Positions 23,705 through 23,730 of a stretch of 64,000 bases of DNA are shown here, piece by piece. Location of the stretch: NCBI RefSeq assembly GCF_003334385.1, contig NZ_QOWN01000013.1; one strand, written 5' to 3'. The stretch's first letter is position 1, and each line of letters begins with the position of its first letter. This DNA comes from Escherichia coli (GTDB taxonomy: Bacteria > Pseudomonadota > Gammaproteobacteria > Enterobacterales > Enterobacteriaceae). The notes beneath the pieces are model-generated. The model was not told the origin of the DNA. It was given only the letters and a program-made list of their open reading frames with translations, and ran no database searches. The translations under genes and the position numbers were made by a program.

Positions 23705-23730
23705 GACCAGTCAGCGCAAACTGACTGGTC
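23705..23730. terminator. Perfect 10-bp inverted repeat between convergent dauA and ychH (putative bidirectional terminator)
   Basis: gaccagtcag-cgcaaa-ctgactggtc. Confidence 0.5.

Follow-up and report, generated by a model that had tools for sequence, protein, structure and literature searches.

Rho-dependent transcripts have been described genome-wide whose steady-state 3′ ends lie right after stable stem-loops (Dar & Sorek, 2018; NAR 46:6797; PMC6061677). The ends of this class carry neither a U-rich tail nor an upstream A-tract, are followed by sequence richer in C than in G, and are trimmed by PNPase and RNase II; only 24% of them are REPs (Dar & Sorek, 2018). REP elements, in turn, are known as 3′-UTR stabilisers and partial Rho-dependent terminators, and have been proposed both to restrain read-through and to protect against decay (Harris et al., 2026, preprint, doi 10.64898/2026.03.23.713779). 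A further class, the collision-type bidirectional terminators, is exemplified by the ynaJ–uspE element and is reported to comprise Rho-independent hairpins situated between convergent genes whose 3′ ends overlap (Ju et al., 2019; Wang et al., 2022, doi 10.1101/2022.10.23.513370).

The locus considered here is a palindrome between the convergent genes dauA and ychH of Escherichia coli, within a window of 64,000 nucleotides (nts), by which we mean the whole stretch of DNA analysed. The original prediction, made from the letters, was that this palindrome probably acts as a bidirectional terminator.

A palindrome shared by two convergent genes

RefSeq annotation agrees with the gene names dauA and ychH, and coordinates in MG1655 (NC_000913.3) equal 1282818 minus the window coordinate. 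The principal features of the locus are as follows.

22015-23694, plus strand of the window (MG1655 1259124-1260803, minus strand): dauA coding sequence, 559 aa, from RefSeq annotation
23749-24027, minus strand of the window (MG1655 1258791-1259069, plus strand): ychH coding sequence, 92 aa, from RefSeq annotation
23704-23731, both strands (MG1655 1259087-1259114): perfect palindrome of 11 bp, two arms and a 6-nt loop
23704-23714 and 23721-23731, both strands: hairpin arms, TGACCAGTCAG and CTGACTGGTCA respectively, read from the sequence
23715-23720, both strands: hairpin loop CGCAAA, read from the sequence

The stop codons of dauA (TAA, 23692-23694) and ychH (23749-23751, minus strand) enclose a gap of 54 nts that holds the hairpin. 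The predicted gaccagtcag-cgcaaa-ctgactggtc is found at 23705-23730, and its perfect stem extends to 11 bp through an additional pair between T at 23704 and A at 23731. The stem had also been placed exactly between the two stop codons; it does lie inside the gap, but is not centred in it, the 10-bp stem being 10 nts from the dauA stop and 18 nts from the ychH stop. The DNA of the window is that of E. coli K-12. A 451-nt query around the hairpin matches BW25113 with 100% identity, and 5422 of the 5426 complete E. coli genomes contain it.

The hairpin can form alike in ychH-sense (minus-strand) and dauA-sense (plus-strand) RNA. In dauA-sense RNA a wobble supplies a twelfth pair at the base of the stem (23703/23732), while in ychH-sense RNA the twelfth pair is a U•G wobble at the loop end, leaving a UUGC tetraloop. 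Six of the 11 perfect pairs are G–C, so that the G+C-rich stem-loop of an intrinsic terminator is present. The fold-energy calculation suggested alongside the original prediction bears out a stable structure: The 30-nt segment folds with −19.2 kcal/mol (z −6.3) in the dauA sense and −20.5 kcal/mol (z −5.2) in the ychH sense, values that none of 200 shuffles equalled in either case.

Perfect stems of this kind are scarce. The 64-kb window contains six distinct stems that reach 10 bp or more and enclose loops of 3-10 nts (10 list entries), against a mean of 0.62 list entries in dinucleotide shuffles of the same window, and all six are located directly 3′ of a gene end. In this window, a perfect stem of at least 10 bp is thus a 3′-end signature. 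The five others are:

26154-26179: 3′ of ychF, with A and T runs flanking the stem
37793-37822: 3′ of ymgE, without A or T runs within the stem as listed
42734-42762: in the convergent dadX/cvrA gap, without A or T runs within the stem as listed
54048-54074: 3′ of ycgM, with A and T runs flanking the stem
58564-58589: 3′ of minE, without A or T runs within the stem as listed

The original prediction had remarked that neither side of the hairpin has a clear U-tract, and this holds up quantitatively. Two canonical intrinsic terminators in the window serve for comparison:

21904-21927: prs terminator, T-tract present
26154-26179: ychF terminator, T-tract present

The first eight tail bases of the dauA/ychH hairpin include three T in the ychH sense and a single T in the dauA sense, too few for a U-tract. 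On the weighted T-tail score it reaches 0.6-1.0 in the ychH sense and 0.04-0.07 in the dauA sense, versus 4.8 for prs and 4.2 for ychF. On the dauA-sense strand, UUAUUUGUU begins only about 10 nts past the stem; on the ychH-sense strand the upstream flank of the stem reads GCAGUUUGC, with no A-tract before it. The tail is T-richer in some Escherichia lineages, for instance AATTTTGTAC in one of the Escherichia loci compared (L005). A consensus terminator/promoter scan, whose match numbers were at chance level, did not call the hairpin, and an Rfam search of window 23000-24400 at E ≤ 10 returned no match.

Conservation alongside ychH

For comparison, YchH was sought in a single genome of each species, and 80 loci were retained. 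All 80 have a stable hairpin within about 110 nts of the ychH stop. When classified by a terminator rule (stem plus T-tract), 55 of these loci carry a stem with a T-tract after ychH, including those of Enterobacter, Lelliottia, Kluyvera, Buttiauxella, Cedecea, and Edwardsiella; 14 carry the E. coli-type stem (GACCAGYCAG...CTGACTGGTY); and the remaining 11 have structures of other kinds, for the most part T-less or REP-like hairpins, such as the REP-like hairpin of Salmonella at the position equivalent to the ychH hairpin. The carriers of the E. coli-type stem are five Escherichia-type loci and nine Citrobacter, and eight of these Citrobacter lack an adjacent dauA; C. koseri, for one, has a cytochrome c1-like ORF as the convergent gene. 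The stem nevertheless always starts 18-20 nts past the ychH stop in the 14 loci. Because this site after the ychH stop is constant, including in the eight Citrobacter loci without an adjacent dauA, the hairpin belongs to ychH.

Across the 20 positions of the core stem, 12 of 220 comparisons differ from E. coli (5.5%), versus 193 of 476 (40.5%) at four-fold degenerate sites of ychH; both sets are phylogenetically non-independent, and C. koseri taken alone gives 0/20 for the stem versus 18/45 for four-fold sites. Judged by this low divergence, the stem is under functional constraint. Loops (6, 7, or 8 nts) and spacers are unrelated between species, and within Escherichia the sequence on either side is free to vary, whereas variation in the hairpin is confined to one loop base, plus a rare C→A change at the loop-closing pair in strain 1002W03. 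The hairpin is single-copy per genome in 5422 of 5426 complete E. coli genomes, and the 66-nt region has at least 99% identity, again as a single copy, in 5109 records. A second rare variant, E. coli AST215 (L082, NZ_AP043621.1; locus at about 1474-1545), has an 18-nt tandem duplication of the loop and right arm, in which CAGCGCAAACTGACTGGT occurs twice, creating two alternative hairpins; slippage between CAGCGCAAACTG and CAGCAAACTG, short direct repeats on either side of the K-12 right arm, is the probable origin of the duplication. Membership in a REP or other repeat family was considered and rejected, as the element is single copy, lacks a REP consensus, and has no extra copy in the flanks of 84 loci.

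The constraint is on sequence rather than visibly on pairing. A covariation test on 12 Escherichia and Citrobacter hairpins, run on both strands, was not significant, the stem being conserved as sequence. In this set, 7 of 12 pairs are invariant, and paired cells amount to 91.7% versus 92.4% on the two strands. One-sided changes point both ways: A T→C change produces C•A in ychH-sense RNA and G•U in RNA of the other strand; for the terminal C→T change the effect on pairing is reversed. With invariant pairs and near-equal pairing on both strands, the RNA strand under selection is not identifiable. A functionless chance palindrome would draw on this lack of formal covariation, which is its sole support. 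By chance, 64 kb should contain only about 0.62 such stems, the stem diverges by 5.5% where neutral sites diverge by 40.5%, the hairpin is near-universal in E. coli, and a transcript 3′ end maps to it (see below); conservation and 3′-end data together have effectively refuted chance.

Conservation as sequence also invites readings in which the stem is more than a structure in one transcript. It is conceivable, albeit unlikely, that the stem sequence is conserved as a Watson–Crick hairpin for both transcripts, or as the target of a sequence-specific RNA- or DNA-binding factor. If the dual-strand version were true, an evolved “shared 3′ cap” would have replaced two gene-specific hairpins; under either version the hairpin would be more than a generic exonuclease barrier. 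A literature search found no paper linking ychH with ProQ, Hfq, or a small RNA. Very improbable, in our estimation, is an element acting at the DNA level, either a palindromic site for a dimeric protein or a target for recombination or insertion. Such an element would account for a stem kept as sequence without compensatory changes, and for the extra genes inserted just past the ychH-proximal hairpin in Citrobacter and Enterobacter. Against it, the arm spacer of 6, 7, or 8 nts with variable sequence is a poor fit to a dimer site of fixed geometry, the element is single copy per genome, the hairpins that other genera have at this position are unrelated, and a transcript 3′ end maps precisely there.

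The arrangement of hairpins varies with the distance between the two genes. Where dauA is more than 300 nts from ychH, most loci have a separate T-less hairpin 5-10 nts after the dauA stop, such as TGATGCAGAGA...TCTCTGCATCA followed by UCACCCC in Enterobacter, or GCTGATGCAGGC...GCCTGCATCAGC in Atlantibacter. Both kinds persist in C. amalonaticus S646 (L011), which has two hairpins about 290 nts apart, one of ychH type and one adjoining dauA, GTTACCGGTTTG...CAAACCGGTAAC. In the C. sedlakii group, where the gap is compact at 65 nts, there is a single hairpin, AATTACCGGTC...GACCGGTAATT, whose core, TTACCGGT, is common to the dauA-proximal hairpin of C. amalonaticus S646. Escherichia has the ychH-type hairpin only. 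This distribution of sequences suggests that neither gene can do without a 3′ hairpin and that one hairpin may serve both where the gap is compact.

The ychH–dauA gap is itself a variable spot among enterobacteria. Cytochrome c1/b-like ORFs occur directly past the ychH hairpin in Citrobacter (some of L010, L013, L059, and L062-L066). Many genomes of the Enterobacter group have an insert of about 1.1 kb in the gap, and variable gaps are found at the Enterobacter, Atlantibacter, and Kosakonia loci L023, L025-L032, L037, L043, L046, and L047. The first ORF of the Enterobacter-group insert begins MLIQVGELAKRAG... and is, by its look, presumably MerR-like. Two records in the comparison carry discordant labels: The ychH–dauA locus of an “Actinomycetes bacterium” MAG (L003, JAEWQO010000123.1) is 100% E. 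coli-like, and that of a “Chryseobacterium sp.” (L041, CACSKA010000003.1) is Enterobacteriaceae-like, which points to contamination or mislabelling of both records.

Transcript ends on the two strands

Published 3′-end maps bear directly on the predicted terminator. The relevant features, all within the window, are:

23699, minus strand of the window (MG1655 1259119, plus strand): dominant 3′ end of the ychH mRNA, by Term-seq
23463, minus strand of the window (MG1655 1259355, plus strand): Rho termination region, score 5.78, p 1.3e-10, as calculated over 800-nt windows with low counts (20-102 reads)
23454-23578, minus strand: C-rich, G-poor ychH-sense read-through RNA, candidate Rho loading region, antisense to the dauA 3′ end
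23849-23857, plus strand (MG1655 1258961-1258969): dauA-sense 3′ terminus from TRS, peak at 1258963 (window 23855)

The Term-seq data of Adams et al. (2021; PMC7815308, Supplementary file 1) contain a dominant “primary” ychH 3′ end at 1259119 on the MG1655 plus strand, present in two of the three growth-condition tabs with read scores of 4004 and 1879. The printed Term-seq sequence (...CUGACUGGUCA AUCUC-3′) places this end 5 nts beyond the last base of the stem. TRS (PMC10687069, Supplementary Data 2) lists a “Primary ychH” range of 1259115-1259125 with its peak at the same 1259119, although this resource is a re-analysis of earlier data sets and may not be independent of Adams et al. The original prediction had named transcript 3′ ends located away from the hairpin as the finding that would count against it; for ychH, the mapped end does lie at the hairpin. 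The TERMITe supplements have no entry for the dauA/ychH locus, and among papers on ychH that mention “terminator” or mutations none was relevant.

A second signal lies further along the ychH-sense strand. From DirectRNA-seq of untreated and bicyclomycin-treated cells, Adams et al. (2021, Supplementary file 2) assign a Rho termination region to 1259355 (plus strand), 241 nts past the stem and antisense inside dauA. Upstream/downstream reads are 102/20 in untreated cells and 75/85 with bicyclomycin; the downstream signal under bicyclomycin need not all be ychH read-through, since the drug also unmasks antisense promoters. At 1259119 itself, the tables of Adams et al. contain no Rho score entry. 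From +126 to +250 relative to the stem, ychH-sense RNA has C/G ratios of 1.5-2.25, a stretch that brackets the Rho position at +241 and that may, from its composition, be a rut-like region (23454-23578). A Rho region so far downstream suggests that polymerase largely passes the hairpin on the ychH side.

Two features are thus observed, a very stable T-less hairpin and a precise, dominant ychH 3′ end 5 nts past its stem. The reading that we favour, with reasonable though far from complete confidence, is that the palindrome is the 3′-terminal stem-loop of the ychH mRNA, Rho terminating transcription downstream and exonucleases trimming the transcript back to the hairpin. We hold to it because the features of the locus match those of the class described by Dar and Sorek (2018). 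Polymerase transcribing ychH would mostly continue past the hairpin and enter dauA in antisense; Rho would load on the C-rich stretch about 130-250 nts downstream and terminate transcription there. By analogy with the known class, 3′-to-5′ exonucleases (PNPase, RNase II) would then trim the tail until the hairpin blocks them, leaving a stable ychH mRNA with a hairpin cap. The hairpin would thereby set the mature ychH end by blocking exonucleases and not by causing termination; that is, it is probably an exonuclease barrier after Rho-dependent termination rather than the terminator itself. Some observations sit less comfortably with this account. A 3′ end 5 nts past a strong hairpin is also what weak intrinsic termination of a non-canonical kind, or termination assisted by collision, would leave; the T-richer tail described above occurs in some Escherichia lineages; and covariation for RNA structure is not significant.

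The foremost rival is a genuine bidirectional terminator, in which the hairpin itself would stop polymerases arriving from both sides, acting as a weak intrinsic terminator of non-canonical type or as the site of pausing in a collision-driven one. We consider this doubtful. In its favour, the hairpin is located between convergent genes, is strong on both strands, and is without intrinsic-terminator features, all as in the collision class; the ychH 3′ end is precise and adjoins it; compact intergenic regions of different lineages hold one hairpin between the two genes; and high stem conservation is what one would expect if Watson–Crick pairing were required on both strands. On the other hand, the collision class is described as Rho-independent, while here a Rho region lies about 240 nts downstream in the ychH sense. 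Moreover, the hairpin stays with ychH when the convergent partner is another gene, and is therefore not tied to the dauA pair.

The dauA side offers a direct comparison. No dauA-sense (MG1655 minus-strand) 3′ end at the hairpin, or elsewhere at 12590xx-12591xx, is found among the listed entries of Adams et al. (2021) or TRS; dauA may be too weakly expressed for a 3′-end call there. The only nearby dauA-sense terminus among the entries listed is that of TRS, which is located 124 nts beyond the hairpin, antisense inside ychH, after a small 6-bp hairpin (UGCCCG..CGGGCA), and whose significance is modest (its three p-values being 9e-7, 1, and 1e-5). Since the palindrome is perfect, dauA-sense RNA would bear an equally stable hairpin 10 nts past the dauA stop, and symmetry together with the comparative data suggests that it probably makes polymerase pause or holds back exonucleases on dauA transcripts too. 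The prediction of a bidirectional terminator is accordingly upheld in part: The hairpin is a 3′-end element for ychH, as the mapped end at 1259119 attests, but the corresponding dauA-sense end is absent from the listed entries, and on the ychH side the Rho region some 240 nts further on suggests passage of polymerase rather than its arrest. Bidirectional termination at the dauA/ychH hairpin is unproven.

Overlap of the two transcripts raises a different prospect. ExcludonFinder (PMC12288877, Table 1) includes ychH–dauA in its set of 165 convergent excludons, each detected in no fewer than 50% of 58 MG1655 RNA-seq samples, a call that runs counter to bidirectional termination at the hairpin. 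One might then suppose that the region exists to let the convergent transcripts overlap, with transcriptional interference or RNase III cleavage of the sense/antisense duplex making ychH and dauA expression antagonistic to each other and the hairpin being incidental or merely setting the extent of overlap. The listing, the ychH-sense read-through into dauA, and the dauA-sense terminus inside ychH all accord with such an arrangement. The two transcripts do overlap as an excludon demands; with a hairpin common to both, however, overlap is unavoidable, and a shared hairpin in a 54-nt gap gives at least 28 nts of it, so that the call is expected regardless. An excludon also leaves unexplained why the stem is conserved beside ychH in species without a neighbouring dauA. 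A search of the literature for reciprocal expression of ychH and dauA or RNase III dependence found no data, and overall we regard an excludon as quite unlikely.

Several further signals surround the locus. An ORF-internal Term-seq 3′ end is located at window 23995 (MG1655 1258823, plus strand), 32 nts into ychH, with read scores of 9115 and 9648, over double the scores of the primary ychH end. Its Rho score is 0.29 (“No”) and its intrinsic-terminator score 1.17, and it falls at the base of a weak 6-bp hairpin, CGUUAC-UCG-GUAACG (window 23994-24008, minus strand; −6.9 kcal/mol, z −0.66). Attenuation, a pause, and a decay product are candidate origins of this abundant short 5′ fragment of ychH. 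A sigma-70-like site (ATGACA, 17 nts, GATAAT; 10/12 matches) runs from 23792 to 23764 on the minus strand, inside the 3′ end of ychH and directed toward the hairpin; if active, it would yield an RNA of about 57 nts up to the mapped 3′ end, although promoter-like matches in the region are at chance level (three found vs. 2.8 expected). At the other end of dauA, a Rho termination region with a score of 3.6 and p 1.3e-6 is located 33 nts inside the ORF (window 22048, plus strand; MG1655 1260770, minus strand), directly downstream of the strong prs terminator (3′ end 1260889), which suggests premature Rho-dependent termination at the start of dauA.

The ychH hairpin among described 3′-end elements

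Beyond annotation, in which the hairpin is now assigned to ychH as the 3′ end of its mRNA, the significance of the locus is small. It does illustrate that enterobacteria provide for the ychH 3′ end at one position in different ways, with a T-less hairpin in some and a canonical terminator or REP-like element in others, and that compact convergent gaps keep a single hairpin. The locus could also serve as a small test case for distinguishing Rho termination plus trimming from hairpin-dependent and collision-driven termination.

With canonical intrinsic terminators the ychH hairpin shares its place relative to the gene and a similar stem stability, and canonical terminators indeed hold the same site after ychH in Enterobacter, Kluyvera, Buttiauxella, and Edwardsiella. 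It differs from them in having no U-tract, with a tail score of at most 1.0 versus 4.2-4.8. Like a REP, it is T-less and palindromic and lies between genes, within a 3′ UTR; unlike a REP, it is single copy, has no REP consensus, and stands outside any repeat family. Its resemblance to the collision-type elements consists in a non-intrinsic-looking hairpin between convergent genes, with a uniform 3′ end on at least one side, that of ychH. The Rho independence and the 3′ ends of two genes by which that class is described are not evident at the dauA/ychH hairpin.

The closest kinship is with the stem-loop ends of Dar and Sorek (2018). As in that class, a precise 3′ end, here of ychH, immediately follows the hairpin; the sequence after the stem is low in U and no A-tract precedes it; and read-through is bicyclomycin-sensitive with C exceeding G downstream, albeit on the low counts and 800-nt windows from which the Rho score derives. 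As with most members, the hairpin is not a REP element. The dependence on the pnp and rnb exonucleases that belongs to the class would, by analogy, extend to the ychH hairpin. What sets the element apart is that it is a perfect palindrome common to two convergent genes 54 nts apart. The ychH hairpin, whose 3′ end is already in public tables, is an ordinary case of this known class of T-less hairpins.
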